A DNA stretch of 61,700 nt, counting the filler, from Nemertoderma westbladi (lineage: Eukaryota > Animalia > Xenacoelomorpha): assembly GCA_032718475.1 (NCBI GenBank). It is 3 parts of 3 records of this genome, joined end to end, with 100 filler letters (N's around TTAATTAATTAA, not from the genome) between each part and the next. Parts side by side here need not be neighbours in the genome. Positions count along the whole stretch, not along the records: positions 21,284 to 52,109 come from JAUCBJ010008153.1; 2 more parts are not named here. The stretch is one strand, 5' to 3'. Positions 6,529 through 54,470 of the stretch are shown here, in pieces. The notes beneath the pieces were generated by a model. The model made no database searches. It was not told where the DNA came from and saw only the letters and a program-made list of their open reading frames with translations. Made by a program: the position numbers and the translations under genes. The first letter of the stretch is position 1. Each line of letters starts with the position of its first letter.

Positions 6529-6547
6529 TTAATTAATTCTAATTAGT

Positions 6548-31545: not shown

Positions 31546-31554
31546 CTCCCCCCC
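31546..31554 (-). promoter_or_regulatory. Polypurine tract (GGGGGGGAG) abutting the 3' LTR
   Basis: The plus strand reads CTCCCCCCC immediately after ...CTAACA. Confidence 0.85.
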
Positions 31555-32375
31555 ATGCTATCTTCCCGGTGAGAAGATAGCATCCACCTCTAGTGCGCTA
31601 CAATTCCGCTGGATCTCGACCTAGTATCGAGTGTGGGGTGGAACTTTTTCTTCGGAGCCGGTTTTCCAGACTGCCCCCTATGGGTATGATATCGCTACCC
31701 TGTTTACCTGGCGTCCTGTGTCGGGCCGATCGTGCCCTCCTCTCACACGACTTTTGTTTCCCCAACACTTTCACCACTAACTCAACTCTACTCTCACCCT
31801 GACTCTCCTCTACTTCCCCTCACTTTCGTCCTAACTTTCGGACCTTCTCGTCCCTCACTCAGCCTCTTATTCCCCCCCCCCCCCCACACTTGAATTGCGC
31901 CTGCACTCTCTCCGCACTACAACTCAACCCCTATCTCACTCACTCACTCCCGACGAGTTTCACCCCCCTCCTGTGCCGTCGCACTCAAGGAGTGTGATGT
32001 CGTCCAGTGTCTCGTCCGTGTTAGTATTATAGTCTATTGGTCCCCAGTCCCAGTAGCTAATTGAGAAAAAAGGTTGTACGACTATAGTACTTACTCTGAT
32101 TGTATTACTTTCTAAACTAATAATGATTTCTACGTACGTACATACTAATTGCACTTTTCAATTATTTAAATTACTTGAATTCGTACTTAGGAGTTCGCAT
32201 GTCTCGCGTGGTGCCTTCCAGGCATATCACATGGATGTCTTAGTTCGTTCCACCTGTCTTTGGGAACCACCTCAACTCTTTCCCTCTATCATCCTCCTCC
32301 CTTGGTCGCTTCCTGGTCACTGCCGCTCCTTTGGTCTTTTCTGCTTTCTGGCTTCGGACCCTCGCCGCCACCTCC

Positions 32376-33341
32376 TTACTGATCCCGGTCGTCGACTCCT
32401 TGGGTGCTGGCGTTATTAGCTCCCGGTATCGCTTCGCGGGTGGCCCCTCCGAGTGGCCCTGTTGTCTCCCCCTGGTGGCGTCCCATAGGATCATTTTCAT
32501 TGCCCGCGGCACATGCTCCGCCAAGAAATCTCTGTTCTGTGGCGTCCAAATACCTCTGCGTATTTATCACCCCGGCATATGACGCCGCCGTCGCCACTTC
32601 CTGGTAGGTAAACGGAAGCCTCCGTTTGATAATCTCCATGTGGGCCTCCTGATTGATGTTAAAGAAGCCCCACCGGAACTCCTGGGCCTTCATACGTTGC
32701 TGAGTCATCACCCCGACGTCGGCCCACTCCTCGAAGATCCTAAACTTCTCTTCATCGTCCATCCAGTCACACTGACGCCTGTAATGCCCCCAAAAGTTAT
32801 ACTTCGAGCACCGGTTATGCAACCGTGGACACGCCCCCATCCTGTGGCTCGACTCGCGGCAGTAGAGACAACTAGTCCCTTTCTGGAACCGGTACAAACA
32901 GCTCCTTTCCTGGTGGGTCTGCCTCCCACAGTAGTCACAGCCGAGCACCAATGTCTCCCGCCCCACATCATCTTTCGTCCCAAGCGATCTCCGCTGTCTG
33001 TGGAGTCGCTGGTAAGCGAACTTCCGGACTTTAGCGTCCCTGTTTATATCGATCTCCTCGCCCCTCCCGGGCATCGTCTCCCCGAATACTACCCGTGGTG
33101 CCATCCCCGGTTGCTCGCCCAACCTGATGGTGCTCCCCGCGAAATCCATCGCCGGCTCCTCATGCACCCGGGCCCGCTTGCCAGGTTTATCCCAGAAGGC
33201 TCTTGCCCCACTGGCCGTCACCACCCTCCCGCCAACCCAGTCTGTGTCCGAGTGGCCGATCCTCTCGATGGGCGGCATATCTCCGAACTCGTCGTCATCC
33301 TCGTCCTCCTCTGGCAGTGGCTCCAATCCCGGCGGACCCAC
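32376..33341 (-). CDS. Accessory ORF, C-terminal part: acidic stretch and three CCHC-type zinc knuckles
   Basis: CDYCGRQTHQERSC, CLYCRESSHRMGAC and degenerate CSKYNFWGHYRRQC (CX2CX4HX4C spacing). Overlaps the upstream ORF in another frame, so it is probably one frameshifted protein. Confidence 0.75.
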   Translation of the reverse strand: MGPPGLEPLPEEDEDDDEFGDMPPIERIGHSDTDWVGGRVVTASGARAFWDKPGKRARVHEEPAMDFAGSTIRLGEQPGMAPRVVFGETMPGRGEEIDINRDAKVRKFAYQRLHRQRRSLGTKDDVGRETLVLGCDYCGRQTHQERSCLYRFQKGTSCLYCRESSHRMGACPRLHNRCSKYNFWGHYRRQCDWMDDEEKFRIFEEWADVGVMTQQRMKAQEFRWGFFNINQEAHMEIIKRRLPFTYQEVATAASYAGVINTQRYLDATEQRFLGGACAAGNENDPMGRHQGETTGPLGGATREAIPGANNASTQGVDDRDQ

Positions 33342-34875
33342 TATGTCCCTTCCCGCCTTGGCTCTCGCCCGTAACTTTCCATCCTTCTAGCTCCCCTAGC
33401 CTCCTTAGCGGCTGATCGCCCTCAGCGCCCGCTGGTATGGGCGTCGTCTGCAATCCCGACGTCGACTGTTTCGGTGATCCCACCGTCCATCCTAGTTCTC
33501 GCCCTAGAGACTTCCCCGAACTCCCTGATGAGGTCCAACGAAGTTCGTCTAAGGCCGCCTGTTCCTCGAAGCTGTAGCTCTGTGCCCTAGCTTCCTCCTC
33601 TCTTTCTTCTGCTTCTCTCCTATCCTGTCTAGCGATTTCTTCCAATCGCTTCGCCTCTCGCCTATCCGCCTCTAACTGCTCCCATCTCTGACACGGCGTA
33701 TCCACCTCCCTGTCTACCAGATGTCGGCTGTTATAGTACACCGACTCGCCCTTCAGCCCCGGGTGATCTACCAGATCCTCGAAAGCCGTCTTAAAGGCTC
33801 TTCTGTAGCTTAGGGGTGATCCCGATAATAGGAATGCCGTTGGTTCCCTCTCGATAACCACGGTCATGAATAGGTTAAGCAAACCCATCATTATCCAGTC
33901 CTCCTGTAGGATATATCGCTTCTGATATACCTTTATCGCTCCTCTCCGGAATTGATACACCTCTTGTCTCCCTGGCCTCGCTCCCCACTTCAGCGAGTTC
34001 GCCAAGTCCGCTCCGTATTCCCCTCTGAACTTACCCCAGTCCATCGGTTTGTGACACACGAGCCCCATTAGCTGGCCCATTGCCACCGCCCCGCAATGTC
34101 CTGTGTTCTCTACTAGTCCCAACCCGTCTGGTGCTGTCATAGCCATATAGACCGTCTGAATATCCAGAAGGTTGGGGGTGTCCGGACCGATGATTCTCTC
34201 CGCGTCGTTGCGAATCGCCGATCCCACTTTCGTCATCGACTTCTCTCTCACTAGGGTTTGCACCGCCTTCGGCAACCGGTTCAACTTCGGCCCGTCCTTC
34301 TTTCCATACGTTCCTAGATCGAATAGGAATATATCCCCATTTAGCGCGGCCAAATTTAGGAGTATGGTTCTGGCTGACGCCACCGTTCCTCTCCTCGAAC
34401 CCTCCTCGTCTTCCACGGTCCCCTCATTGTCTAGGACCATGTACCCTTCTCTGCTGACGGACTCTACGATCCTCTTCCAATCCTTCCTCGGTGGCTCTCT
34501 CGCGTACTTCGGAATCCCGAACTTCGCCTCGTCTCCCTTCACCACGTAGTGGAAATGCTCGAAGATCGCGTTGTCCAGCGACGGCGTCCCGTAGGTCCCG
34601 ACCAGCCACTGTTCGTGCACCGCCCTGAAATGGTCCTGTAGCGATCGTGCTGCGTGACCTCTCTCCAACCGCTCGTAGTATCCCTTCGTCTTCTCTTCCG
34701 GATGCCTCTTGGTGAAATCCACTAGTATTTCTTTTCCTCCTGACTCCGCCTTTCTCTTCTTAATCAGTTTCCCCGCCATTCCAAACACTCTCACTCGCTC
34801 ACCTGTAAGGTGGTGCCTTGCCAAGGCGCAATACAGATGAGTGATCGGTTTAAGATGGTCTGTACAGTTCGACAA
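33295..34875 (-). CDS. Accessory ORF, N-terminal part: DEDDy-type 3'-5' exonuclease (WRN-exo/RNase D/Mut-7-like) followed by a charged coiled coil
   Basis: ExoI YMVLDNEG; LLNLAALNGDIFLFDL; ExoII LPKAVQTLVREKSMTKVGSAIRNDAERI; NLLDIQ; ExoIII YQKRYILQED. Order and spacing follow the DnaQ-like WRN/RNase D pattern (aligned by eye). Confidence 0.75.
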   Translation of the reverse strand: MSNCTDHLKPITHLYCALARHHLTGERVRVFGMAGKLIKKRKAESGGKEILVDFTKRHPEEKTKGYYERLERGHAARSLQDHFRAVHEQWLVGTYGTPSLDNAIFEHFHYVVKGDEAKFGIPKYAREPPRKDWKRIVESVSREGYMVLDNEGTVEDEEGSRRGTVASARTILLNLAALNGDIFLFDLGTYGKKDGPKLNRLPKAVQTLVREKSMTKVGSAIRNDAERIIGPDTPNLLDIQTVYMAMTAPDGLGLVENTGHCGAVAMGQLMGLVCHKPMDWGKFRGEYGADLANSLKWGARPGRQEVYQFRRGAIKVYQKRYILQEDWIMMGLLNLFMTVVIEREPTAFLLSGSPLSYRRAFKTAFEDLVDHPGLKGESVYYNSRHLVDREVDTPCQRWEQLEADRREAKRLEEIARQDRREAEEREEEARAQSYSFEEQAALDELRWTSSGSSGKSLGRELGWTVGSPKQSTSGLQTTPIPAGAEGDQPLRRLGELEGWKVTGESQGGKGHSGSAGIGATARGGRG

Positions 34876-35349
34876 TGGCCTATTCCCTACTTACTCTTGA
34901 GTAATAGCCTAATTTTACTACCTAATTCCCTAAACTGTCAAATTGTACCCTAAATTACAATTTTGTCCGTTACTTTAATTATGTTCCAGAATTTACTTTC
35001 TACTGTTACCATAATTTGTTAATTTTCTTAGCCCTATTCTATTTTTAATATTTTAATTTAATTCAATCCCACTACTGTGCTATTACTTATTATTGCCAAT
35101 GGATTATTCTATTCCATAATCCACATTCTGGCCTACTCTATGGGCTTGTGCAGTACAACAGTATGCGTCGCGTGGCCTACACGATTTATCCAGCTGTACT
35201 CATATGCCCCGCCCCCCTCTCGCTACTTACTACTAACTGATATCTATATTATATATACCCTTCTACCTCTTACTCTTACTAGCCGGTACTACGTACCCTC
35301 TTACTAACCTCTAACTCTCTCTAACTAACTAACAGTACTACGTACCCTC

Positions 35350-35850
35350 TTACTACTAATTTCCCACTGTCTAACTAGCGGTACTACATACTCTCTCACT
35401 ACTAATTTCCCACTATCTAACTAGCGGTACTACATACTCTCACACTACTAATTTCCCACTATCTAACTAGCGGTACTACATACTCTCTCACTACTAATTT
35501 CCCACTATCTAACTAGCGGTACTACATACTCTCTCACTACTAATTTCCCACTATCTAACTAGCGGTACTACATACTCTCTCACTACTAATTTCCCACTAT
35601 CTAACTAGCGGTACTACATACTCTCTCACTACTAATTTCCCACTATCTAACTAGTGGTACTACATACTCTCTCACTACTAATTTCCCACTATCTAACTAG
35701 CGGTACTACATACTCTCTTACTAACGGTACTACGTACCCTCTTACTACTAATTTCCCACTATCTAACTAGCGGTACTACTTGCTACTTGCTAACGGTACT
35801 ACGTACCCTCTTACTACTAATTTCCCACTATCTAACTAGCGGTACTACTT
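35350..35850. repeat. 46-bp tandem repeat inside the BEL/Pao element, between integrase and the accessory ORF
   Basis: ACTAATTTCCCACTATCTAACTAGCGGTACTACATACTCTCTCACT at 35401, 35447 and onward, about 10 copies. Confidence 0.93.
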
Positions 35851-36059
35851 GCTACTTACTGACGGTACTACGTACCTTCTAACTACTAACTCCTACTATC
35901 TGCCTAACTCTTACTACTTCCATCTGCCTACTTACTCTTCCTTTATTTATTATTTTTTTTATATTTTATTTTTATTTGTGGGAAGGGCGTCTCACCCTCA
36001 ATCCCACCCCCCTCAGTGCAAAACTTGGATGACTAAACACCACTAAAATCCACTCTAAC

Positions 36060-37360
36060 TCAAGGTGCCCCCTCTAGCAGACAGCACTTCCCTACAGCTC
36101 TCCTGTAGGTCTTCCTGTCTTTCGCACCTATCTTGCCACCTATTCGCACTTCTACCGATCGGACTCTTCCGTCCTCATCGGAGTAAGTGCCCACAACTCT
36201 CGCCAACCGCCATTGGTTGTTAATGATGGTATCGTCCGTGACGATCACCAGATCACCCTCCTTTAGCTCTCTATTCGTGTTCTCCACTTACTTCTTCTAT
36301 GTAGTGTGGGCAGATATTCCTCGATCCACCTCCTCCAATACTCTGCGCTTATCGCCTTAGCGACTTTCCAACTCTGGCGGGAGTGTATGTCATCTGGGTC
36401 TACACCCCGCATATCGATAGTCGCTGGTCTTTCCATTAGGAAATGGCTGGGCGTCAGCACGTCTAATGACTCAGGGTCATCATTTTCTGGATATAGCAGT
36501 CTGCTATTAATGATACCCTCACACTTTGCTAGTACTGTCCTTAGTACGTCCTCTGTAACCATGTGGGTGTTCATCAACTTCGTCATCAGACGCTTCAAAC
36601 TACCCACTAGTCTCTCGACGCATCCTAGGGTATGCGGAGCATACGGCGTCCTCCTCTCCCATTTCACTTGTCGCCTTCTCATGGCTGCCCTGACTTCCTC
36701 CCCTTCCAGGATATCCAAGGCCTCTGCCATCTCATTCTCTGCCCCCACAAAGTTGGTTCCGCTGTCAGAATACATTACTGCGATCGTCCCACCTTTGCGG
36801 TCTCTAAACCTTTCTAGAGCATTAATGAATGCTGATGCGGTTGCATCTTGGGCGAGTTCTATTCCTACCGCCCGCGTGTTATTACATACGAAGATGATAC
36901 CGTAGAGTTTCTCCGTGTGCCGCATCACCTTAATCTTTATCAGCCCAAACATATCCACACCGCAATGCGTAAATGGCGGGTCGTGCTGTCTCACCCTACT
37001 GGCCGGTAGTGGCGCCATCTTCTGTATGGCTCGCTCCTTCTTCGCTCGTCGGCAGGTCTGGCACTGCCCCACTACTGCCTTTACCTTCTTCCTCAGCTGT
37101 TTGACCCAAAAGGCCCTCCGTATCTCCGTGAGGGTTCGGTTGGTGCCCCCGTGCAATATCGACTTGTGGGAGTCCCATATAATCTGGTGGACTATCGGCG
37201 ATCCAGTAGGTATGATGATGGGTTTTGGCGGTATTACAATACTGTTGTTGTTCAATACCCTCGAGTTCATTACTAGAATCCCGTCATCATTAAGTTGTGG
37301 TGACAGCGTGATCAGCTCGCTGTCTCGTCGAAGATGCTGTTGTTTACCGACGCATTCCAC
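36060..37360 (-). CDS. BEL/Pao integrase (HHCC, DDE core, C-terminal domain; frameshifted)
   Basis: HKSILHGG...CQTC, PPFTHCGVDMFG, YSDSGTNFVG, GCVERLVG, LTPSHFL, W..EYLPTL. The tail GDLVIV..WRLARV..DGRVRSVEV is in ORF 36060-36287. Confidence 0.95.
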
Positions 37361-37551
37361 CTCGTCGCCGTAGTTCTTCTCTCTGCTCGTAGCGGATGAC
37401 TGCTTTGGCTGCTCCCTCCAGATCGATGGTTGCTCTAGCTTTTACGTCTTTGTCGACTCCCTTGAGGAAATTCCCGAAGGCTCTCCAGTACGCCACTAAC
37501 TTCTTGGTCTTGTACCAACTGGAGCTGTAGCTGAGGAGTTTATCCGTCGGG

Positions 37552-39990
37552 TTATCGCACAGTTCTCCCGGTTTTGGTTGCACGTCCCTTATCTCCCTCA
37601 CCATTTGGCTGTATATCTCTTCTCCCTCTGAATCTCCCTCTTCTTCCTCTAACGCTACTTCTCCTGAGCCCGGGTCCACCTTTCTCATCGGCGGCCAGGC
37701 TGTCCTTATCGCTCAGAAACTGCGGCCCGTGCTGCCACAATACTTCCTTCTTCAAGAAAGTGTGGCGTGCCACGCCCCTCGATAACAAGTCCGCTGGGTT
37801 CTCGTCCGTTGGGCAGTAGTGCCACCTTTCTAACTCTGTGGTCACCCTTATTTCGTCCACCCTATTTGCGACGAATATAGGGTATCTCGTCCTTTCGTTA
37901 TGTAGCCAACCGAGCACTACCATGGAATCCGTCCAGTAGTGTGTTTCCACTATGTTGGGAATAGCGTCCATTAAGTAGGCTGTGGCCCTAACTCCTAATC
38001 TCGCAGCTGTCAACTCGAGTTTCGGAACTGATGCTGAATCTGGTGGCGTCGACTTCGCCTTGCTAAAGGCGAGTCTGGGCTTGTGAGCCCCCTCTCGCTG
38101 TACTAAGTAGAGTGCCGCTCCGTATGCCTCTAATGACGCATCGGAGAACATATGTAAATCCAGATTCGTCATGTTCCCGTCCGGGAAATATACACGTGGC
38201 ATGCTGTATGTTCCCATCTGCTCTAAACTCTCTGTCCACTTGTTCCATTGCTTACTAATCTCTTCCGGGACCTCTGTGTCCCACTCGTCCTTTAATTTGT
38301 ATACTCTCTTGAGTATCTGTTTCCCCGTGACTGGTAGTGGGGATGCTAGGCCTAGGGGATCGTATATCCTCGCTATATACGACACATAGCCCCTCTTTGT
38401 GTGGATACCTGCGCCCTCCTGACTCAGCTGGTATTTTAACTCGTCTGTCTCTCGGTTCCACACGATCCCTAGTGCCTTCTGCTGGGACTCCACTCTCTTG
38501 TTCGCCATGTCCTGTCCCTTGGCTGTCGTGGGATTATCCATGGTCGACTCTGGCCTCCTGTCCTCTATGGCTTTCATGAACTCTTGCGAGCTGGATTGGA
38601 ACTTGGTTAGGTTGAACCCGGATCCTTTTAGGATGTCGCGAACCTCGCGCCCCGTGTCCAGTAGTTCCTTAACCGTATTTCCAGACTCCATCCCGTCGTC
38701 TACATAGAAACCTCGTCGAATCATATCGACGGCTTTGGCGCTGAACTCATCTTCCTTCCCTGCTACCGTGTCTCTTACGGCCATAGTCGTTGTAAACGAA
38801 GACGACTTGGCTCCCATATTCTGTACTATCATCTTATACATTGGTATGGTCGATGGTTCCTCATCGCCGTCGTACCATAGGAAGCGTTGGCTGTCGCTAT
38901 CCTCTTCCGTTACACGGACTTGGTTGAACATGCCTTCGATGTCGCAGGTGAAAGCGTGTTTACCATTCCTGAATCTGAGTAGGACCCCGATCCCTGAGTT
39001 GTAGATGTTGGGACCCTCCAGCAGATAATCGTTTAGGCATTTTCCGTTGGTCTTGGCCGATGCGTCAACTACCATCCGCAGTTTACCTTTCTTCGGGTCT
39101 AGAGCCACGTGGAGTGGCAGGTAATAGGTCCTGTCCGTGTTTGGTTCGTCGACCGGTAATTCTACGGCCCATCCTTTCTCGACATACTTTCTAATTGTCT
39201 TGTGAATGTACTCATTCTTCTCGGGGCTCCGTTTTAGCGTCTGCTTTAACTTACGAAGCCTCGTGAGTACCATCCCTTTGTTGTCGGGTAATGGTAGCTT
39301 CGGTAGCTTCCATACCATTCCTATGGTATACCGCCCCTCATCGCATGTCATCGATTCCTTTACACTTTGTAAAGCCTGCTTGTCTTCTACCGAGGTTCCG
39401 ACCCCGGTCTCCTTTAATCCCTCGAAATCCTGCCTGAGCAGTCTCCTGAGCTGCTCCTCCGCTCCCTCATCCTCCATCTCTCGCATAGTTCCCGTGAACA
39501 TGCATCCTGATGTCTCCGACATCCTAAATGGTATCTTACTCTTAATTGGGCCACTCAGCGTCCACCCGACTGGTGTTAATATCGCCACCGGGTCACACTG
39601 CCTGTCTTCGCCGAAGACCGTTTGCATTCTCTCGTGGGCCGTCGGGCAGTCCATTCCTACTATGATGGATACCTTCCTGACGTCCACCTCTGGGATTGAG
39701 AAGTCGATACTGTCCAGGAATCTATATTGTTCGACCTCGATGTTGGTTGGCCGCCTGGCGTTGATATTTATCGACTCTATCACCTGGATGGGGTCGATGG
39801 TCGCCCCATAGTCGCATCCCAGTGCCACCGCTGCTATCGCGCACCGTCCGGTCCTCATCTCCAGGAACTCATCTCTGCTGGAGATGGTTGTCACCGCCAT
39901 TCTACTTGGCCTCGTTCTCAATCCTATCTCTTCGGCCACCCAATCCTCGACTAAGTGTGAAGGCTGCTCCACTGTCGACCAGCATCAGTG
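37552..39990 (-). CDS. BEL/Pao pol: aspartic protease, reverse transcriptase, RNase H (frameshifted)
   Basis: LVDSGA protease site at about 39965-39985 (adjacent frame); YYLPLH, KLRMVVDAS, LNDYLLEGP, DIEGMFNQV, FYVDD; LHMFSDAS, PKLELTAA, WTDS, FVANRV, ENPADLLSRG. Confidence 0.96.
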
Positions 39991-42900
39991 TGGTCACTGA
40001 TCGATTGCCTTCCCCGATCACTCGCACTGGTACTACCCCAAGTAATACCGTTCCTCTCTTCTTCGCTCCCTACGGTGCTCGTTGCCATCGTTTGGCCTTT
40101 ACTTTGACCGAACTTAATCGGCGTCTCCTTGCATTGTTTGGCTCTGTGTCCACTCATCACACATCGCGAACAGATCTCATTTCTTGTTGCGTATTCTACC
40201 TGATCTTCCCTGGGTAGCGCTTGCCAGTGCCTGCAATTCATGGTCTGATGAAGTGCATTTGTATGTAGCTGGCATTTGCTCTTTGGGTCGTAGCCGTCCT
40301 TATACAGTGCATTGCGATCACAGTTGCATTTGTACCAAAGTCCCTACTATTCTTATTGTTTGGGCTCGGCCTACTGGGCGTACTGGGGTTATGTTTATTT
40401 GTATTGTTATTTTTCCCCTGTCCGCTCCATGATGTGGTCTTATCCCCGGCTACTTGTGGACTGGTAGTCCCCTGCGTTGCTGCGTACGGCAGTGACTGTC
40501 TGAGCTTTGGCAATGCGTTCGACGCGTTGTGCTCTGGTTTCGGCCTGTGGTAATCGGTCTTTGATCCCTTTCCCAGGCTATCCTCGCTATAGACTGGGTC
40601 CGTTATAAGTTCAGCTTCATAGTTTAAGAAGCTTGACATCTCTTCTAAACCCGGTTCCGCACCCTTCCTATCTCGAGTGGAGAAAGCGATTTTTCTCCAC
40701 TTATTGCGCAGCCACATCGGTAGTGCCTGCGCTATCGTGGTGATGTTGTTGGACGCGTTGAGTTCGTATGGCGCCTCTAGCGTCTTTAGCACGATTAGCG
40801 CCTTCTCGACTTTGTTAGCGAATGTCTTTATGCTAACGGGGTTATCCTGTAGGCCACCCGATGTTATACCTCTCAGGGTCTGCCGGATGATCTTGGCTGG
40901 GTGCCCGTATTCCCTGTCTAATGCCCGCCATGCCATCGTGAAGCCACCCTCGATGCCCTGGTATTGCCTCACGATGTCGTATGCTGGGCCCCCTGTATAT
41001 ACTTGCAGATACTTTAGGCACTCCGCCTGCGTCAAATTCTTTGTTAATATTTCGTTACTATACATGCGCCGAAACTGTAGGTATTCTTCCGGCCTACTTC
41101 CATCGAATTTGAATGGTTCCACGGGTGGTAACTCGATCCTAGTCTTTAATGCATCGATTAACGTGGCCATCCCCATCGCTTGCGCTTCCAATGGGTTCGA
41201 TGGATGCTGTATAGGTTCTCCCGTTGGGTGCGGTCCGTTCATCCTGTTTGCCGCTTTCCTCTGACTTGGATATATCATAGGGGGTAGCGGCCCCCTCCAT
41301 ATTTCGGTGTCGCATGATCTATTCTCGTCCAAGGGGTTCGATGTTCTTACTCCTATTGGGGTATATTGTTGATATTGTGATGGGGGAATGTCACCCTGCC
41401 CCCCCCCCCCCCCCCCCCCACCGGTATGTTTGGTACTGGGGTTGATGTTAATATATTGGGGCCCATACACCTATCCGCAGTAATTCTCCCCTCCCCTGGG
41501 TATATGTTATGTCCTTGCATGCTGTAGTCATACTGCTGTGCTGGTACCGGTATAGGCCTATCTACTTCTGGCCTACCTGCCGGTATATACTACGCGACTT
41601 CCGGGTTTAATCCCGTTGTTCGCGCTATCCTATCGCCTACATTATCTCTCTCAGCATGGCCTATGGTATGTGCAGTAAGGCCTACAGTATGTCCTGCAGT
41701 CTGTACGTGTCGATTGGGATCAAAGTTTATCCTTCTCGAATAATCCTTCCCACGGCTACCATATTCTCGTTCGGTAGGTATATCCCGTCGGGAAGTTTCT
41801 CTTCGACCCCCTCCACTGCTCTCGTCCTCGTGCCGGTACATCCCGTACCCCTCTCTCTGCGCTTAATACGCCTCGTCAGGTCGCGTTCCTCCGGGGCGAC
41901 GGCAATCTCCCGAAGTTTGACCCCACTGACTCTCCGTCTCCACCTCTACTACCGACGGCTCGCTATCCGCCCTCGCTCTCCTGTCATTTGCGGCGACACT
42001 TCTTCTACTCTCTTCCTTTCTTCTCTCTGTAGTGCAGTATTCCCGCTCGTGAGATCTCTCGTCGACCTCCCGGTTAAACTCCACTGTTCTTCTTCCCTCT
42101 TCTGATCGGGCTCGACGCCTCGTCGCTCGCCCTCTCGCGACGTCAACCTGTCTCTCTCTGCTCGATTGCACGCCGCTGGGGATACTCGCAATCCCCCTAT
42201 TACTCTCCATCGCCGGGTGTTGCGGTTTACCTAACTCGGCCCGCGCATTATCCGTCGACGCCTGTGGGGCACTCTCTGCCCCCCCCCCCCCTCTCGCCGC
42301 TAACTTGTCGTTGTGGGGCTCCTGTAGCCCCCCACTCGCCACATCTAACTTCACTATCTCTTACTTCGCGACTACACCCCTCTCTAGCCGACACATTAAC
42401 CCTACTGCGGCTGGGTCTATTCACTCCCGCCTCTCCCTCTGCTACTGTGTGGCCTACCAGGCTCTCTACTTCCTGCCTACTAACTACGTGGCCTACCAGG
42501 CCCTCTTCGGGTTGGCTCAACCCCGCCACTTCCGGCCTACTAACTACGTGGCCTACCAGGCCCTCATTTGCCGGGTTATACACGTCCGACACGTTCACGT
42601 TAATAGCACCACTGATATTGCCATTGGTTAGATCAATTAAATCCTCTAACTCAATTAAGTTATTTTGTGCGCCCAGATTAGAAACGGAATTATTTTGCTC
42701 GTTCAAAATAAGATTATTTGAATTATTTTGTAAATTCGGATTTAAGTTTAAATTATTTGAATTATTTTGCGTAATTATATTATTTGAATTATTTTGCGTA
42801 ATTATATTATTTGAATTATTTCCTACATTAATATTAGAATCATTCGGATTTAAATTACTACTGTCGGGCAAAATATTATTTCCTGCAATGAAAGTTTGAT

Positions 42901-44237
42901 TAGAATTATCCAATATGGTACTATTAATATTAACGTTGTCTACTGTATTATTATTATTACCCCCCGCCCATACGGTCACACCAGTCTCGGGTCTGTCGTG
43001 CGGTTCCTGTAAGTGGGGTATTAATAAATGTTTCCACAACCCTTGGCTCCTCGAAAATACTCGAGCCAGCGTCACTCTCTGACAACCCCATCTGCGCCAG
43101 CTCCAGCCTGCGCTTCTGTTTGGTTTGATACTAAATAAGTCCGCTTATGCGGGCATGTAAACCATCCCGCACACGCTTTACCGCTCTCTCTCTCTCTGTA
43201 TCCTCTCGCAAATTCTGTTTCACTAATTATGTTTCTCTCGCCACACGCTCCTTACGTTCACTCTGCTCTCTTTCCTCGCACTCCCTAAAGCGTCTCACGA
43301 CCTTCTCGGCGTTCTCTCTATTTCTCTAACTAGTTCTTTCTCCTTCTCTAATAGCGCACTCTCTTCTTCTAACTGTCTCTCGAATTCTCTCTGACCTAGC
43401 GCCGCCAGATCGAGTTGGCACGCCAGATTTATCGCCATCACCCGTTTTTCTTGTGCGGAGGATGTAGCAGACTTATCGGTTGTGACGGATTCCCTCCGCC
43501 TTCCCGTCCTACTGACTCTCCCCCACCTCCCGGAACTCCCTCCGACCGACGAGACCGAATCCTCGGGGTTAACCTCGGATTCGCCCTCCTGCGGTCTCCT
43601 CCAACCCACTAATTTTACTCCCCGGGCATCGACTAAGTATGGCCCTATGTACACTACACTAGGCTGCATACCCCTACACTCCCATAGTTCAAACAGTTCG
43701 CTGGCAACCCCTCTCGCTCTCTCCTCGGCTAGTTCTCTCTGCCCAAAACGCATCAATAGTTAAATGTTCATTCGACTCACCTAGTCGTCTTTTCAACTTC
43801 ACCTGGTCTATCTTGGCCCCTCCTTTGGTCTCTTTGAGTAGTTTCCGGGCTGCGTTGTAAGCTCGTCAAAGTCGATCGCTGACCCCGACGTCCTCGTCGC
43901 CGACATCTCCTCTATCTCTCCGGGTCCGGCGTCGTACCGGCGGCCCCACCGTCGCCGTTCCGGTGGGCCGTCCGTCGCCCTCGGCCTTTGGCTGGCCGGC
44001 GACTTCGGCACGTCGACCGCCGCTGTGTGTCGACTCGTCTCTCTCCTCTCCCGACTCGTCTTTCCCTCCTCTCGGCTCTTCTTCTGGTTCTAGACGGCCC
44101 CCCTCATCCTGGATTGCCGGATCGCCCGTTGTCGGTTGATTCGGCGTCGCAGGACGGTACCGTTGCGTCGCGGCCTCGCGGATCGTTAGATCGCCATCCG
44201 GGGTCCGCGGCAGTGTCGTTTCCCCTTCTCGACTCAT
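39951..44237 (-). CDS. BEL/Pao gag region, fragmented by frameshifts, with a long N-terminal extension
   Basis: Core 40238-41470 has FDGSRPEEYLQF, LKYLQVYTGGPA and AWRALDREYG (Pao gag) plus DPVY. The knuckle CSRCVMSGHRAKQC is in 39951-40241. Upstream ORF pieces run to the ATG at 44237 and are charged, coiled-coil-like or Asn-rich. Confidence 0.8.
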
Positions 44238-44300
44238 CTTTAGCAGTCAGCTCGGGCTGTTAGATTCTATAACTTAGGGCAGCTGGTTGGTTCTAATTAC

Positions 44301-44875
44301 TGTGACGGGATCCACTGAGGATCCCGGTTTATCCTGTTTCTAGTTTACGCGTCCCCCCTGTGTGTATGTGAAAGAGTTCTGAGTTATTGATTGATCGGTG
44401 TATATAGGTTCAAGGATATAATATAATAAATGATAATAGCACGAATAGTTGATGTTTGATACAGTGTACCGGTAAATGATAATATATTGCTGACAGCAGA
44501 CTGAGACGGTAATTAGAGTTCCGCTACTGTCCTAACTGACTGACTTACTACAAGTGAATGAAATAATGCAAGGACCGGTAATATATTGCACGGTTGGCCA
44601 TGTTGCTCTACTCAGTCGATGCTTCCCCCCTAGGGTATTGGCTAATAACTCACTTGTCACCCTTCCCCTTTCCCTGGGTGTGCTTCCCCCTGCTACTGTC
44701 TCCCTCTCCCTCCCGGAGGTATAACCTCAGACCCCCGCTGTGTGTGTTCCCTTGGGGCCTATTGTCCCCGCTTATTGGGGTGACACGAGGTTGATTGGTA
44801 ACCAACCTCGTGCTCCCAATATTGCTTAAAACCAACTCTGTGTGTGGGGTGGTTGGCGGAATTGATACGCTAACA
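44301..44875 (-). repeat. 5' LTR of the BEL/Pao element (575 bp)
   Basis: Direct repeat of 30977-31545, upstream of gag on the minus strand. Confidence 0.96.
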
Positions 44876-45440
44876 TGCCGTACTGGCCTAGGCCCTATTT
44901 ACCCATTTCCTGGTCACCAATCACCATCCTGCCATCATCCGGTCAGCCAGGCTGGAAAAAGTCTCCCAGGTGCCAGGCGCGCACAACGCCCGCGCACTTC
45001 ATTGCCAACCGCGCATTCCCATATGCAATAATCCATAATCGCGCACCCCAAAAATCTCAACCGCGCAACTGCACACCCAAAAAAAAATCAACCGCGCACC
45101 CCGAAAATAAAATGTAGGATAGTTTTAATAGCTACTGCCTGACTGCTACGACTACGGTAAATGGCTGATTGGAGATTATTGCTCTTCAATCAGTCAACTT
45201 TGCACTGTAATAAATACTATCTGACTATTCTGGGGCATTTTATTTATTTAATGAGAAGCTATGACTAGTAAAATTACATCAAGTTGTTACTAATCTTCAA
45301 ATAAATTGTGTTCCAGAATATTGTCAGTGATTGTATATTTATCAGTTTATTAAATATAGGCCTAATAACTGGTCTGCCCTGCAGGCTGTATCAGATGCAA
45401 AGTTCTGCACTTTTTGAAGGCCCATATCTGAGCTATTTCT

Positions 45441-47006
45441 TACGGTGGCTGAATTGTGCCACTTAATACTTTTTTTTATTTTATTTTTGAAGCGACTTTT
45501 TGGTCGACCAAAAAGGACTTTTTGGTCGACCAATAAGTCGACTTTTTGGTCGACCAAAAAGTAGTTTTTGGTCGACCAATAAGTCGACTTTTTGGTCGAC
45601 CAAAAAGTCTGGAAGTATTATCCAATAGAAAACATACAACTATTTTCGAGGCAAAATCAAATTACATTAAGTGAATTAGGTGGTTATTTAAAACCGTCAA
45701 TTATCACATTTAAAACCGTAACACTATCATGATGAAGGATTAATATCCTAGGTACCGGTAGGCCTAGCGATCAATGTGTTTAACAAAGCTTTATGTACAC
45801 CGGTACAGTAATTTGATTTTACCTCCAAAATAGTTATATATATGTTTTCTATTGGATAATACTTCCAGACTTTTTGGTCGACCAAAAAGTACTTTTTGGT
45901 CGACCAATAAGTCGACTTTTTGGACGACCAATAAGTACTTTTTGGTCGACCAAAAAGTAGTTTTTGGTCGACCAATAAGTTTTTTTTTTTTTTTTTTTTA
46001 ACTCTTTAAGTCTCATTTATTCACATAGATAATAAAACGTTAATGTTAAACAATACCCACCACCAGCCGACGTTACTAGGCAACCAATATAAGAGGGAAA
46101 TTTAAAATGAAATCCTTTGCCCGCCCCCAACACAGAAACAGTCTCTATGGTGTATGGAGCATACTACTGTATTTACACCACCCTACCGAACTGCGCCAAC
46201 ACCCCAGGGTCTGAGTCCGCGTTAGCCAACCGGATCGATGAGTCGGTGACTGCCTCCCGCGCCGGTCGCCTAGCAGCCGAACGGTACCCGCGTAAACACA
46301 TTAATGACGACCTGAGGAGGGAGAAACTGATTCGCCGACGTACCCATGAGACGCACTCCGGATAGGGAACCTGCCGTTTGTCGGACAACTTCACCGCCAG
46401 TCGTTTGACAGTACTTTTTGGTCGACCAATAAGTCGACTTTTTGGTCGACCAATAAGTACTTTTTGGTCGACCAATAAGTACTTTTTGGTCGACCAAAAA
46501 GTAGTTTTTGGTCGACCAATAAGTCGACTTTTTGGTCGACCAAAAAGTACTTTTTGGTCGACCAATAAGTCGACTTTTTGGTCGACCAATAAGTACTTTT
46601 TGGTCGACCATTAAGTAGTTTTTGGTCGACCAAAAAGTACTTTTTGGTCGACCAATAAGTCGACTTTTTGGTCACTTTTTGGTCGACCAATAAGTACTTT
46701 TTGGTCGATCAAAAAGTAGTTTTTGGTCGACCAATAAGTCGACTTTTTGGTCGACCACTAAGTAGTTTTTGGTCGACCAATAAGTCGACTTTTTGGTCGA
46801 CCAATAAGTCGACTTTTTGGTCGACCAAAAAGTACTTATTGGTCGACCAAAAATTACTTTTTGGTCGACCAAAAAGTCGACTTATTGGTCGACCAAAAAG
46901 TACTTATTGGTCGACCAAAAAGTACTTTTTGGTCGACCAAAAAGTCCCTTAAAAAAATAAATAAAAAAAATATTAAGCTGTTAAGTGGCACAATTCAGCC
47001 ACCGTA
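45441..47006. mobile_element. MITE/foldback element with TIR TACGGTGGCTGAATTGTGCCACTTAA, 6-bp TSD ATTTCT and internal GGTCGACC palindromic arrays
   Basis: Perfect 26-bp TIRs, ATTTCT at 45435-45440 and 47007-47012, and dozens of 21-23-bp TTTTTGGTCGACCAA(T/A)AAG units. Confidence 0.88.
45980..46410 (-). mobile_element. 3' end of a CRE-like (restriction-like endonuclease) non-LTR retrotransposon with poly(A) tail
   Basis: KRLAVKLSDK...Y..CVSWVRRRISFSLLRSSLMCLRGYR resembles the CRE-clade C-terminus. Stop at 46173, AATAAA at about 46017-46022 on the minus strand, poly(A) at 45980-45999. Confidence 0.7.
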
Positions 47007-47959
47007 ATTTCTCAATGACATTTTAATAGTTATTTACAAATTTGGAATCCTTGCAACGACAACTTTCCATTGATATCAACAAATCACAATAAGGACGAAG
47101 AATAATTGCCATGCGAGGTGCGACTGGCGCAATGTTTAATTACTTATTAAACAAATAATATTTTTTAATAATTATAATAATAATTATGATTTTAACAATA
47201 AAACTACATATTGTACGATAAATAAAACACATTATTTTCTACATTATATTTAACTTATTGCCCTTCGATCTGACTTATTAACCTCCCTCGCTGCGCACGG
47301 TTGGTAAATAAATAAAACATATTTTATTTACCGTACAATAAATAGTTCTTTTTAATTTCCTCATTACCTATTTTGCTATTTCACAATCTGACAATGGAAG
47401 AAACATCAATGGATGATATTTATGCTGAAATAGGTGCAGTTAACTGGTTAAAAGTAAGAAGATATACAAAAAGAGCATGACAAGCAAGGAAACTGTCGAT
47501 AAGACTGGCAATGTGCACAACATTAAACTATGGGTGAAAAAAAGTGACCTTCAACAAATAAATACTTTTATTCTTAAATTGTTACTTTTTCGCTCGAATA
47601 TACCCCAAAATCGGGAGAAAAAGTTATACTTTTTTCACTAGGGAAAAAAATTAATCAATAGGATTGCTTTGATTTTACTTTTTTTCTCGGCGAAAAAAGT
47701 AAAGTAAAATACTGTATTTTTAGTGGAATTTCTTAAATTTTACTACATATGTTGAAAGAGCATCGCAGTAGGAAAGGTTTGCAAGTAATTTGAGCAAAGT
47801 TCTACTTTTTTTCCCATGTAAAAAATACCGTAATTATTGTTATTCATCGAAAGTTGTTAAATTACTTACAGTAGGCCTACATGTATTATGTTTTACATCG
47901 CCAAGTAATAGTGATATGATAGGCTGTAGGCCTATAAAAGTAATAAATTTTGAACTTAA

Positions 47960-48233: not shown

Positions 48234-48676
48234 TGGTGCGCAAGAGCGCACACACTGACACACACACAGACACACCGTGTGTGCGCAAGCGCGCACATGT
48301 GGCTTGCTCTGTTGACACACGGCGCACATTTTTGGCCTTTTCCGCGCACGCGCACGCGCCGCGCACCCATTATTTTACCGCGCACAACGCGTTCTAATTT
48401 TTGCAAACATTTTCCAGCCTGGCCGGTCAGTCGATCTGTCGACTGTCGATCGCAGGTTGGGCTGTTGGGTGTTTATTCAATTTCGAATATTCGTTTGGTT
48501 AACGCTTCACCTTGTACTGTGACTGTACCGGACAGCCGGAAGTTATCCATTAAGGCTTGCAGCGCAACCTAGGGCAGTAGGGCTACCGTAGGGGCGCAAG
48601 AGCCAAGAGGACTACTTCTGATATTATAATTTCTGAATTTACTTGATTAATAATATATTATATATTATATTCCCAA

Positions 48677-50788
48677 ATGAAACCGACAGTGCGGCTACTT
48701 ACCGAAACTTTTCTGGGGTATGTTTACTTGTCCACCTTCGATGGGTTAGTCCCCCCGGTATGGATGTACGCGCAGGACGCACTGGGCCCTACCGGGTACG
48801 AGGCTGTGTTCGCCGTTTGGTTCGCCCCACTGGTGCTCGCCATCCCGGCGCTGTATCGTTCCTTCTCTTCTCGTTATGGAACCGCATTCCTCCGTCTCTC
48901 TTGTCTCCTTGGCATCGCATCGTTTCACGCCCCGGACGTTTACAAACGGATGGTCGTGGTTGCCGTTGGCAACGCCTTCATGGCAATTCTCTTGTGCGTG
49001 TCGCTGTGGAATAAAGATGCCAACAAAAGGAAATCCTTTTTCTGGGGGTTAATGTTGGGGGGTCTACTTCTTCAAACGTTTCGTATTTGGTTCGTTAGCT
49101 TCAATCCTTTGTACCTCCACCAAAAGATGAATAAGTTCATCACCGCCATTGCTTTCTTTGCTTCTATCGCTATTGTTGAAGATGATTTCCGAGTTGAAGA
49201 TGAGCCTGAGGTTATAAAAGGTTCTCAAGCTGAGACTGACGGCTCTTCTGAGCAGACGGGATCGCCCCGCACAAACCAGCATTGGTTCATCTCCGGCGTG
49301 TCTGTTGGTTCCTCTATGTTCCTACAGTGGGTGTTCTGTAACGAGGTGTCTGTTCTCTGCCGTTGGTGCGGCACTCCTTACCCCAACCGCGGTGCGGTCC
49401 CCAACCCCCACGGCTTACTGGTCCTCTTCGCCTCCGCCCTCGGGCTCCTCCTGGGACTCATCCGACCATCCCTCGCCTCCCAACCACTCGGTTGGTTCCT
49501 CGCGTTGCTCTCCTCCCTCGTCCTCCTCTACACTCGCTCCTACCCCTGTTTCCTCGCTGGGATCTTCCTCGTTCTCTACCTCGCCCTTAGTGCCCCGGCC
49601 CTGTACCAACGGGCCTCCCAGTGCGCCCCAGCCCCCACCATATTAGCCGCCCTCGCTACCAAACTCCTCGGCGGCGTCGCTCTCGTTTGGGTCACCGCTT
49701 ACAACTTCGTCCCTTACGGGATCTACGCTCGCGAACGCACCGACGTGGTAGTACTAGTCGCGATGGTAACCATATTCCTAGGTCTCTTCAGTTACAAACT
49801 GAAACCAGAAAACTCGAATCTCGAATTTCCCTCAAAATCGAAGGTCTATAAACTAATAAAAGTTCTAACTATCGGTGTATTCCTCTTGGGAGCCGCTGGT
49901 TTCGCATTTCGCTATCCGAATCTCGTAAAGAAATCGTCCGGGCAGACTGGTCGGGACTCGCTCACTGTGGGCGTCTGGGCGTTCCGTCTGGGTTATCGTA
50001 ATGACGGGTTCCCAAACATCGGAGCCGCCGTGCAACTCATCCGGGAGACCGAGGCCGACGTATTCTCCGTAATCGAGTCCGACTCATCGAAACCCTTTAT
50101 GGGTAACAACGACAACTGCGCCTATTTCGAGGAATCTCTAGGCTGGTACTGCGACTTCGGGCCATCCACTAAGGACCACACGTGGGGAGTGATGTTGCTC
50201 AGTAGGTACCCTATAGTGAGCAGTAAGCATCATCTGCTCCCGTCTCCCGAGGGGGAGTTAGCTCCAGGGATCAGCGCTGTCATCGATGTGTTGGGAGAAA
50301 AGGTTGAGATCGTTACGGCGCATTTCGGTAACCATAGGGACAATCTCGACCGGGAACTCCAGGCCAAATACATCGCGAAGTTGACGAGAAACTCTCGACT
50401 CCCTATCATCTACGTCGGGTATCTCACGTCCAAACCGGGCGGGCGGGATTACAACGAGATGACCATTAACGGGAATCTACGGGACATCGACCCGAGCGAC
50501 GCTCAGCGTTGGTGTCTGTACGTCCTGTACAACCGGTTGGTGCGGGTCGGGTACGCGAGGATATCGCACGGGGCGCTGAGCGACACGGAGGTTCAGTTGG
50601 GGAGGTTCGCCCTGCCCGGATCCAGGAGCGAACCCGATATGGTGACGACGGTGAGCGAGGAACACGTAGCCGAGTCGCGTCGGTTCAGTTCGGCCTTCGG
50701 GGGTTTCAGTTACGGCCATAACTCGGGGCCGCTAAACCGGTACCACATGGGAACCCCTAAGTATTTTATTCCCAATACAAAAAACTGA
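48677..50788 (+). CDS. CWH43: PGAP2-interacting protein / Cwh43 homologue (GPI-anchor lipid remodelling; multi-TM plus EEP-fold domain), 703 aa, single ORF
   Basis: Many hydrophobic segments, then WVTAYNFVPYG.YARERTD, ESDSSKPFMGNND, DFGPSTKDHTWG.MLLSRYPI, HHLLPSPEGELAP, HFGN..D.LDRELQ, DIDPSD.QRWC.Y and GYARISHGALSDTEVQ, all characteristic of Cwh43. Confidence 0.93.
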   Translation: MKPTVRLLTETFLGYVYLSTFDGLVPPVWMYAQDALGPTGYEAVFAVWFAPLVLAIPALYRSFSSRYGTAFLRLSCLLGIASFHAPDVYKRMVVVAVGNAFMAILLCVSLWNKDANKRKSFFWGLMLGGLLLQTFRIWFVSFNPLYLHQKMNKFITAIAFFASIAIVEDDFRVEDEPEVIKGSQAETDGSSEQTGSPRTNQHWFISGVSVGSSMFLQWVFCNEVSVLCRWCGTPYPNRGAVPNPHGLLVLFASALGLLLGLIRPSLASQPLGWFLALLSSLVLLYTRSYPCFLAGIFLVLYLALSAPALYQRASQCAPAPTILAALATKLLGGVALVWVTAYNFVPYGIYARERTDVVVLVAMVTIFLGLFSYKLKPENSNLEFPSKSKVYKLIKVLTIGVFLLGAAGFAFRYPNLVKKSSGQTGRDSLTVGVWAFRLGYRNDGFPNIGAAVQLIRETEADVFSVIESDSSKPFMGNNDNCAYFEESLGWYCDFGPSTKDHTWGVMLLSRYPIVSSKHHLLPSPEGELAPGISAVIDVLGEKVEIVTAHFGNHRDNLDRELQAKYIAKLTRNSRLPIIYVGYLTSKPGGRDYNEMTINGNLRDIDPSDAQRWCLYVLYNRLVRVGYARISHGALSDTEVQLGRFALPGSRSEPDMVTTVSEEHVAESRRFSSAFGGFSYGHNSGPLNRYHMGTPKYFIPNTKN

Positions 50789-52209: not shown

Positions 52210-53469
52210 GAGATAATCCAGTTCGGACTAAACGGATTTGTTTAAGTATCCTGAGCACTTATTTCGATCCATTGGGATTTATTAGCCCAGTTATATTGAT
52301 TGCTCGGAGTTTAGTACAACAAATGTGGCTTGAAAACCACTCATGGGACGATCCACTTAAGGGAGAATTATTAAAGAAGTGGATGAAGTAGGCCTTTAAC
52401 ACAGAGAGAGGCAGAATTACCTAGGGAATGAGTAAGCTTTTATGAACCACCCTTTACTAATACCGGTGTGGATTTATTTGGCCCTATTGAAGTATATCGT
52501 GCTAGGACTATAGTCAAGAGATGGTGTGTAATCTTTGTTTGTATGACTTGTAGAGCCATCCATCTCGATATGGTGAACGATTTATCTACCAACAGCTTTC
52601 TATTAAGCTTACGACGACAGATCGCTCGCTTTGGCACTAGTAACACGATGAGATCTGATAAGGGAACAAACTTCATTGGTGCCAACAATGAAATCAAAGC
52701 TTACGTCAAAGATTGGAACCAAAGACAGGTGGACGACCAACTACGAGTAACAGCGTCTAGTTGGACCTTCAACGCCGCCGACACCCCTTGGTGGGGAGGA
52801 AGTTGGGAGAGATTAATAAGAAGCGTGAAGACAGCATTTCATTTTATAGTGCCTTGCCGCGCTTATCTCACCGACGAACTTTTGAGGATGTTAATGGAAG
52901 AAATCGCCGCCTATCTCAACGAGAGACCGCTTATGCCAGTCTCATCGAGTCCCGATTCCCTGGAAGCGCTAACAGCCGCGCACTTCCTACTGAAGAAACC
53001 TGTAGCCATGCTCCCACAATCGGAAATCACAGACGGAGATGAATACTGCCGACAAACTTGGCAACTCATGCAGTTGTTATCCCGTCGTTTCGCTGACCAT
53101 TTCGAAAAACATTATCTGCCCACGCTACAACTTCGAACCAAGTGGTTTGCGCAGCAAGAAAACGTTAGCGCTGGAGACATGGTTCTTATTGTGGATGTAG
53201 ATCTTCCACGTAAGAGGTGGCAGACAGGTCGTATCATCGAGACCCACATCTCGGATGACAGTTTGGTGCGATCGGTAGAACTCGTCGTCATGCGACGTAA
53301 CTTCAAGAAACCGGGAATTGTCTTCGAGACGCAGCAGCTCAATCGCCCGGTGGGACGTTTATGTTTACTGGAAAGAGACAGAGAACTCTCCGGAAACTAT
53401 GGGAGACAAGATACTCTTCCCACGACCACCTCCCTAATCCAACAAACATCTAGGGACTCCCCAACTTAA
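52210..53469 (+). mobile_element. Second BEL/Pao element: internally deleted pol ending in integrase (ORF 52468-53469)
   Basis: TKRICLSILS.YFDPLGFISPV..WDDPL joined directly to EPPFTNTGVDLFGP, CRAIHLD, SDKGTNFIGA, GGSWERLIRSVK, YLPTLQLRTKW and GDMVLI. The RNase H and HHCC regions are missing. Confidence 0.92.
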
Positions 53470-53487
53470 CAACGGCTGGAGTGGGTG

Positions 53488-53899
53488 TGTGACCATATTA
53501 CTTTATATTTGTATTTGTTTTATTTTTATATTTATGTATGTATTATTATGTAATTTTATTTTAATCGTTTTATTTAATTTTATTTAGTAGTATAGTATTT
53601 TAGAGATTATTTAGTAGATTAGTGCAATATATATTCGCGTTTATTATTTAATTACGTATATTATATATTTAGTGCGACGGCGAGAAATAATTCTTTTTCT
53701 CTTTCCTTACTGCCCGTATTACATTATCAATACGTGACTACAGTAAGATGAAATATCCGTACTTATTAAAGTACAATAAAGCCACTACTATATTTAAGTA
53801 TTATTGGTAGGCAGAGTATTAGGACTGCAAAGTTCAGATCCTCGTGTCTCGGCTAAACCAAGCTCTGGGTAGACCTTGGAAACGACTTGCCTCTTCACA
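53488..53899 (+). repeat. Possible 3' LTR (TGTGA...TCACA, 412 bp) of the second BEL/Pao element
   Basis: Follows the G-rich tract GGCTGGAGTGGGTG, has 5-bp terminal inverted repeats and an internal AATAAA. No second copy is available in the window to confirm it. Confidence 0.4.
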
Positions 53900-54470
53900 C
53901 TGACATTGCTTCGTGCGATATTGCTCTCATACCGTATATTAAATAATACATATAGTAGCGTGATGTCCCTTTAACAGTAGCGTATAACGCAAAATAAATC
54001 TGTTAAACCCTTTGACCATATGTAATTCTAGTCGATTAAGATATCGCGGCACCCACCGATATACTTGAAAGACAAATTTCTAGAATCAATGGTTAACGTC
54101 CCCAGACAAGTTATGGAATAAACTGGTGCCCATCCTAAATATTAATTATTAATATTTACAAAAATCTGTCAAATATCAGATCCTTTAAAATTCTAGTCGA
54201 TTAAGATATCGTAGCACTTACCGATACTCTTAAAAGGACAAAATTCCTAGAATCAAGGATCCCAGTCCCCAGACACATTCTGGAATAAAATTGTGTCCAT
54301 TTTAATATTAAATAATAAAATTTACGGGAATAAATTTAAATTCATATATTTCAATGAATTTAATAAATTGTCATTTTATACAATTTATAACATTCCCAAA
54401 ATTCCATTTATTAATAGATCATGGGAGCGGAGATTCACTCTATTAAGACGGTCCGGTATTAAGACTTCTA

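Follow-up and report, generated by a model that had tools for sequence, protein, structure and literature searches.

A BEL/Pao element with an atypical leader

The analyzed stretch of Nemertoderma westbladi DNA (61,700 nt, hereafter the window) carries on its minus strand a 13.9 kb BEL/Pao element whose coding region is broken across several frames. Its long terminal repeats (LTRs) were delimited by self-comparison, and its main parts are given here in the direction of the element.

44301-44875, minus strand: 5' LTR, 575 nt, TGT...ACA ends
40238-41470, minus strand: gag piece with DUF1759; gag upstream of it, to 44246, is broken and in several frames
37552-39984, minus strand: protease-reverse transcriptase (RT)-RNase H frame, with YVDD and Peptidase_A17 (E 7.5e-42)
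36263-37441, minus strand: integrase frame, with H2C2, rve and DUF5641; frame breaks separate it from pol and from its own C-terminus
35274-35919, strand not assigned: tandem-repeat spacer from integrase to extra ORF
33295-34890, minus strand: extra ORF, exonuclease-like by Atlas features
32376-33386, minus strand: frame after the extra ORF, with CX2CX4HX4C-type zinc knuckles and no Pfam match
31546-31554, minus strand: polypurine tract, directly adjoining the 3' LTR
30977-31545, minus strand: 3' LTR, 569 nt, 97% alike to the 5' LTR

By its predicted proteins, on which the filing rests, this is a BEL/Pao element. The domain order (DUF1759, Peptidase_A17, rve, DUF5641) corresponds to the Pao-type arrangement gag-PR-RT-RH-IN, and PF05380 is carried by all 120 homologues among the matches listed. 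The LTRs, which start with TGTTAG and end with TCACA, lie within the 0.2-1.2 kb used for BEL/Pao LTRs and have the TG...CA ends and polypurine tract that go with them. A triple Cys-His box in Gag is given as a BEL/Pao feature in PMC554778; the gag of the window element has one clear and one degenerate knuckle and no visible third, in a region with a frame break, and the third knuckle of relatives (CX2-4CX3HX4H) is unlike the Suzu form quoted in that paper. The flanks of the element (CGGCA and GCGCA) do not form a perfect target-site duplication. Comparison of 43600-45600 with public contigs of three samples returned many diverged copies, indicating a high-copy, diverse family.

The ICTV profile of the Belpaoviridae (Semotivirus) describes genomes of 4.2-10 kb with an 18-nt primer-binding site (PBS) for tRNA-Arg or tRNA-Gly, and replication that is tRNA-primed and poorly understood (PMC8742986). 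The window element resembles this profile in its DUF1759 gag, Peptidase_A17, YVDD RT, integrase in last position, DUF5641, TG...CA LTRs and polypurine tract, but differs in its 13.9 kb length, its extra 3' ORF and the lack of a tRNA PBS (PMC8742986). An Rfam search gave no match within the element, and a tRNA gene search of the whole window found none.

Two further hairpins occur on the minus strand, a perfect one of 11 bp (31555-31583) immediately before the polypurine tract and one of 10 bp in U3 (44784-44812). Contig depth at 44739-44872, in and beside the U3 hairpin, is far above that of mid-LTR.

The leader complements a stretch of the element's own LTR

The first base beyond the 5' LTR is 44300. 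The leader starting there has the sequence GTAATTAGAACC, and its first 60 nt contain no TGG. The first-pass annotation had claimed that no TGG for a tRNA CCA end follows the LTR, that nine bases at the PBS position have an exact complement in both LTRs, and that the 3' end of this complement falls on the first base outside the LTR. All three statements hold: in the paired state, the 3' C of the LTR 9-mer faces base 44300. The features involved in the pairing, and those predicted around it, are the following.

44534-44586, minus strand: candidate core promoter, with a TATA-like stretch at 44586-44579 and an initiator-like A at 44559, 44541 and 44537
44521-44535, minus strand: predicted to prolong the duplex, with interruptions, by pairing with leader 44286-44274
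44509-44517, minus strand: exact complement of the PBS-position 9-mer, in the 5' LTR; predicted self-primer 3' end at 44509
44483-44488, minus strand: AATATA, non-canonical poly(A)-like hexamer, 20 nt past the primer end
44306-44326, minus strand: hairpin in U5, 8 bp around a 5-nt loop, 5 nt short of the PBS position
44292-44300, minus strand: PBS-position 9-mer GTAATTAGA, directly after the LTR
31185-31193, minus strand: the same complement in the 3' LTR

The LTR 9-mer is identical between the two LTRs, and the bases on either side of it differ. In 20,000 dinucleotide shuffles of the LTR, a 9-mer match arose with a frequency of 0.0026 at offset 0 and 0.0068 at any offset from 0 to 3; such a complement lies in the preceding 575 nt for 22 of 13,315 positions within the element, and the window leader reaches 9 bp with one of 32 foreign LTRs. 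The 9-bp core, at -7.6 kcal/mol, is the weakest among matches of 9 bp or more. Forty of 574 differences among family contigs were listed, too few to gauge conservation, and none falls in either 9-mer. Taken alone, the match in the window sequence is modest: suggestive and no more. A second complement of 8 bases (LTR position 68) was set aside, as it lies inside a local hairpin.

Sampling of BEL/Pao relatives

The best protein relatives of the window element are only 35-40% identical to it; no close relative or sister family was found among the sequences searched, and a viral contig collection yielded no relative. With an alignment of the window RT and 10 relatives as query, we collected 89 loci, 10 from genome contigs and 79 from contigs of metagenomes (out of the 80 best among 423 confirmed, from at least 598 listed). 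Thirty-two could be scored: 25 that have no TGG-type site (21 families) and 7 that have one. The other 57 have no recognizable 5' LTR end or no LTR piece upstream of that end; they include three loci with a GT leader and too little LTR (L043, L075, L084) and two of TGG type (L034, L044). Among the 25 non-TGG loci, the LTR end is defined by the two LTR copies in 6 (these being degenerate in L006) and by an LTR start together with terminal ACA or family identity in 11; in the remaining 8 it was taken as the ACA before gag, and these were first nominated by the pairing scan itself. The score is the longest Watson-Crick run between leader (offset 0-5) and LTR, either contiguous or across any GT..AG of 45-700 nt.

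Several loci call for comment in their own right. The label of L069 as tRNA-type is void, also in two trees, as its contig begins within coding sequence, and that of L041 is likewise provisional. L048, L050, L057, L066, L073 and L044 form a separate clade with a TGGCACCTC-type, tRNA-type PBS, located 2-3 nt past the LTR where the LTR end was scored. L040 and L046 have a polypurine tract ahead of the 5' LTR and look like head-to-tail elements with a common LTR. L080-L089 are BEL/Pao elements in contigs filed as bacterial metagenome-assembled genomes, most likely misbinned animal host DNA.

Leader and LTR covary in relatives

The first-pass annotation had proposed looking to related families for covariation between leader and LTR, and there it is found. 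At least 9 Watson-Crick pairs with the own LTR are reached by 23 of the 25 non-TGG relatives, and 10-17 by 22 of them, versus 4-5 pairs in all 7 TGG-type relatives. When leaders and LTRs were swapped among loci (n = 640), 85 combinations (13%) reached 9 pairs, 41 (6.4%) reached 10 and 16 (2.5%) reached 11. Of the 6 relatives in which the two LTR copies define the LTR end, 5 reach 10-13 pairs and the sixth 10 of 11 with one mismatch. The two non-TGG loci below 9 pairs are L081, with 8 (10 of 11 with one mismatch if spliced), and L061, which fails with 5 and groups with TGG-type elements.

Across 20 families including that of the window, leader position 1 is G in 18 and position 2 is T in all; positions 3-11 of the duplex each show three or four different bases. 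The sisters L003 and L006 differ by one compensatory A-T to T-A swap; of the 17 pairs present in L020, its sisters L021 and L027 retain only 10. In every case, 0-5 nt separate the end of the duplex from that of the LTR. The window element, with offset 0, a leader that starts with GT and a primer that ends with AC (as in 18 of 20 families), 208 nt from there to the LTR end and AATATA 20 nt past the primer end, fits its relatives, and by sequence comparison this layout is common to it and a large clade of BEL/Pao elements. Covariation between PBS and primer is seen among the relatives, no sister family of the window element having been found for such a comparison. The window element itself is a weak, divergent and unsplit case; the strength of the case lies in the relatives.

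A predicted intron splits the putative primer in most relatives

Most relatives have a primer that is split by a predicted intron, a feature absent from the first-pass annotation. In 18 of them, the pairing becomes whole only across a GT..AG intron predicted in the LTR, with 3-7 pairs contributed by the downstream exon and 3-10 by the upstream exon over a distance of 75-612 nt; examples of the predicted junctions are L020 133-239, L012 919-1119 and L071 44-235. Each of the 18 split solutions has a consensus-like donor and a pyrimidine-AG acceptor, versus 591 of 9,053 background GT..AG pairs, under a splice-site filter that was set after the sites had been inspected. Four relatives (L003, L006, L019 and L052) carry the primer unsplit, as does the window element; they occupy three separate places in the clade, which suggests repeated intron loss. 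Among all GT..AG pairs, none extends the window primer by splicing without a mismatch, and the single one-mismatch solution has poor sites and an offset of 5.

Downstream of the primer, AATAAA or ATTAAA occurs within 60 nt of the primer end in 15 of 20 relatives, versus 15 of 624 upstream windows; the AATATA of the window element was counted as a miss. The primer end would thereby lie directly ahead of a short repeat region, the arrangement that strand transfer would require after a cut.

Strong donor-like sites are also present in the window LTR, at 44653 and 44548 (minus strand). An initiator-like A (44559) precedes the latter by 11 nt, and an intron beginning at this second donor could remove the 9-mer; no acceptor passed the filter. 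In L001, the same five primer bases recur behind two acceptor-like sites (597 and about 827), only the second of which has an AATAAA downstream.

Predicted start site, duplex extension and U5 hairpin

Motif searches for TATA-like and initiator-like elements place the candidate core promoter upstream of the 9-mer; the first initiator-like A (44559) follows the TATA-like stretch at a distance of 27 nt. In transcripts folded from starts at 44537, 44541 or 44559, the 9-bp helix has a probability of 0.94-0.99, versus 0.61-0.69 from starts at 44517-44520, because 44535-44521 then pairs further with the leader. Transcription is thus predicted to start, likely, 20-42 nt upstream of 44517; the start at 44517-44520 envisaged by the first-pass annotation is not needed and looks unlikely. 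Given the further pairing, the predicted window primer is likely longer than the 11 bases of Tf1. The extension is not significant on its own in the window element (rank 4 of 24 swaps; shuffle p 0.12), and it beats every swap in 6 of 23 scored loci. The whole 5' region of the window element folds no better than shuffles (z 0.45), and no common initiator position was found upstream of the primer in relatives, the motif occurring in 5 of 22 within the 130 nt or less available.

The U5 hairpin described earlier is present in the window element, with arms at 44325-44319 and 44313-44307 extended to 8 pairs in the 5' LTR, and folding of the final 45 nt of the LTR gives z -4.1 versus base shuffles. 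It does not look like a general feature: among relatives, a U5 fold below z -2 is seen in 3 of the 25 without TGG and in 2 of the 7 of TGG type. Its loop takes 5 of the 12 indels among the family contig differences listed. For Tf1-type elements, a 1998 paper by Lin and Levin names a U5 stem-loop in its title.

An exonuclease-like ORF absent from the sampled relatives

The extra ORF is likely a 3'-5' exonuclease of the RNase D/DEDDy kind, to judge from its Atlas features, which score 0.93 to a PF01612 cluster (24 of 30 matches). It has no Pfam, PDB or sequence match, and its predicted model (pLDDT 34) offers no usable fold. Candidate ExoI-III acidic motifs were picked out by eye. None of the 89 fetched loci and none of the 120 proteins matches this ORF, and the distance from RT to 3' LTR is about 1.7-2.2 kb in most scored relatives with a 3' end, versus 6.2 kb in the window element. 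As relatives pair leader and LTR in its absence, the pairing does not need the exonuclease, and the link that the first-pass annotation had floated as speculative fails as a requirement.

ORF3 of the bdelloid LTR elements Juno and Vesta, which follows pol, encodes a DEDDy exonuclease according to PMC5408684. The window ORF resembles it in its position after pol and in its RNase D-type 3'-5' exonuclease character; Juno and Vesta are gypsy-like, unlike the BEL/Pao element of the window, and the likeness noted here is one of position and predicted function. The main text of PMC5408684 makes no mention of a PBS or of self-priming.

TATA-like, initiator-like and donor-like motifs follow one another at about 35260-35225 (minus strand), between the tandem spacer and the extra ORF, and could represent an internal promoter.

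Placement in RT trees

Self-pairing loci form one clade, with an SH-aLRT value of 99 in one tree (built without 13 of 63 rows that were near-duplicates, short or unscored) and an SH-like value of 100 in another. This clade includes proteins labelled Amphiura, Lineus, Haliotis, Amphibalanus and Oratosquilla; TGG-type loci and L061 lie outside it. The window RT is a long branch (1.2-1.65) that falls just outside the supported clade in two trees and is not separated from the TGG-type pair L032 and L034 in a third. A tree that holds it with the self-pairing clade differs by +2.16 in log-likelihood (p-AU 0.57), which neither rejects nor shows membership.

Proposed mechanism and alternatives

We propose that the window element primes minus-strand DNA with its own RNA in cis, a reading to which we give a probability of roughly 0.72. 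For the clade of relatives, self-priming of either kind, in cis or in trans, is very probable. The self-priming suggested by the first-pass annotation thereby gains leader/LTR pairing and covariation in relatives on its side; the priming step itself is what we infer from them.

In the proposed sequence of events, transcription would start about 20-42 nt upstream of the LTR 9-mer, and the RNA would fold back so that its 5' part pairs with the bases immediately following the LTR, through the 9-bp core and its interrupted extension. Cleavage after ...AC at 44509, for which the RNase H of the element is the probable agent by analogy with Tf1, would leave a 3' end opposite 44300. RT would extend this end through U5 and the short repeat as far as the cleavage point. 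This short repeat, extending from primer end to poly(A) site, would then serve strand transfer. In most relatives the primer would exist only after splicing of the LTR intron, with the 3' LTR copy in the RNA staying unspliced so that the intron is inherited; the window element would carry its primer unsplit.

The clade may instead make a dedicated primer RNA, a short spliced LTR transcript that ends at the poly(A) site, is trimmed and replaces the tRNA, with the window lineage having a ready-made primer and its own 3'-5' exonuclease for the trimming. We regard this as unlikely. Priming in trans as such requires that a short capped, spliced RNA ending at the LTR poly(A) site anneal to the PBS position of unspliced genomic RNA, its tail being removed by RNase H or a 3'-5' exonuclease. 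Such an arrangement agrees with the hexamer found in 15 of 20 relatives, although an ordinary short R region leads one to expect the same position. It directly explains, through the unspliced template, why 18 relatives keep an LTR intron, and a primer RNA acting in trans would relieve the 3' LTR copy of the need to stay unspliced; yet an unspliced 3' copy can keep the intron in cis as well. The exonuclease-like ORF of the window element speaks for trans priming, but relatives do not have this ORF, and the known self-priming of Tf1 acts in cis. We hold trans priming to be quite improbable.

Of similarly low probability is a duplex that is real but structural, acting in packaging, translation control or end-joining while something else, such as a nearby tRNA fragment, primes. 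Folding and covariation indicate pairing and not priming, and half-tRNA primers are described for copia-type elements. This reading must nevertheless account for a duplex that in every case takes the place of the TGG site, 0-5 nt from the LTR end, and that TGG-type relatives do not have. Moreover, the leaders differ in each family, so priming by tRNA fragments would need a different host RNA for each.

Least probable is that only the relatives self-prime and that the window match is a chance one in a separate lineage with an internal tRNA fragment or a decayed site: the match is short and AT-rich, many windows were screened, the branch is long and unstably placed and the hexamer non-canonical, but offset, GT start, AC end, distance to the LTR end and the hexamer-like motif all follow the relatives' layout, and the 9-mer is the same in both LTRs amid differing flanks.

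Relation to known self-priming elements

Our preferred reading, self-priming in cis, has precedents outside BEL/Pao. Tf1/Tf2 of Schizosaccharomyces pombe, Tj1 of S. japonicus, Tf1/sushi elements and Tcn1 are described as having no tRNA site and a PBS after the 5' LTR that complements LTR-encoded RNA over about 11 bases (PMC7175516, PMC4600332, PMC5341516, PMC6317226); the Tf1 primer is said to be released by RNase H cleavage. The window element shares with Tf1/sushi the lack of a tRNA site and a leader that complements a stretch of its own LTR, here over 9 bp. The Tf1/sushi group has the RT and integrase of Ty3/gypsy chromoviruses, whereas the window element has Pao-type domains and no chromodomain match; on its predicted features it would act in the manner of Tf1 without belonging to the Tf1 group.

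A second precedent is the TAR lineage (Houba, Osr-1) of Ty1/copia elements, for which PMC6317226 predicts self-priming from at least 10 bp of LTR-PBS complementarity 0-5 nt past the LTR. Against the cut-off given there, the 9 bp of the window element are one short, and 22 of 25 relatives reach 10 bp. TAR elements are copia elements of plants; the window element belongs to BEL/Pao and to an animal.

A full-text literature search, with Repbase, GyDB, the full ICTV report, subscription papers and supplements outside its scope, returned no publication that describes BEL/Pao elements as self-priming or as building their primer by splicing. The main texts of PMC3118150 and PMC554778 mention neither PBS nor tRNA nor priming. 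A primer split by a predicted intron, as in our 18 BEL/Pao relatives, was not found in the literature searched for any self-priming element.

If our reading is true, self-priming gains a third LTR superfamily beside the Tf1-like gypsy elements and one copia lineage (predicted). If the primer is completed by splicing, the onset of reverse transcription would depend on the host spliceosome, and one repeat could behave differently in its 5' and 3' copies. Self-priming would also explain why PBS-based annotation misses such elements.

Other features of the window

A second BEL/Pao fragment lies on the plus strand (52387-53900), with an integrase, a polypurine tract and, from about 53486, a 3' LTR; the fragment adjoins an assembly gap and has no 5' part. 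The plus strand also encodes a PGAP2IP-like gene in a single frame of 713 aa (48647-50788), and a partial copy of the start of this gene, 96.5% alike, is located on the other side of the BEL/Pao element (29473-30039, plus strand). Nested inverted repeat clusters occur at 24800-26630 and 45440-47010, and Rfam miRNA matches at 45489-45992, which score below the gathering threshold, derive from such nested inverted repeats. Finally, a protein-kinase ORF (6533-7534, plus strand) is followed by an 86-copy satellite with a 59-nt period that begins at 7450.
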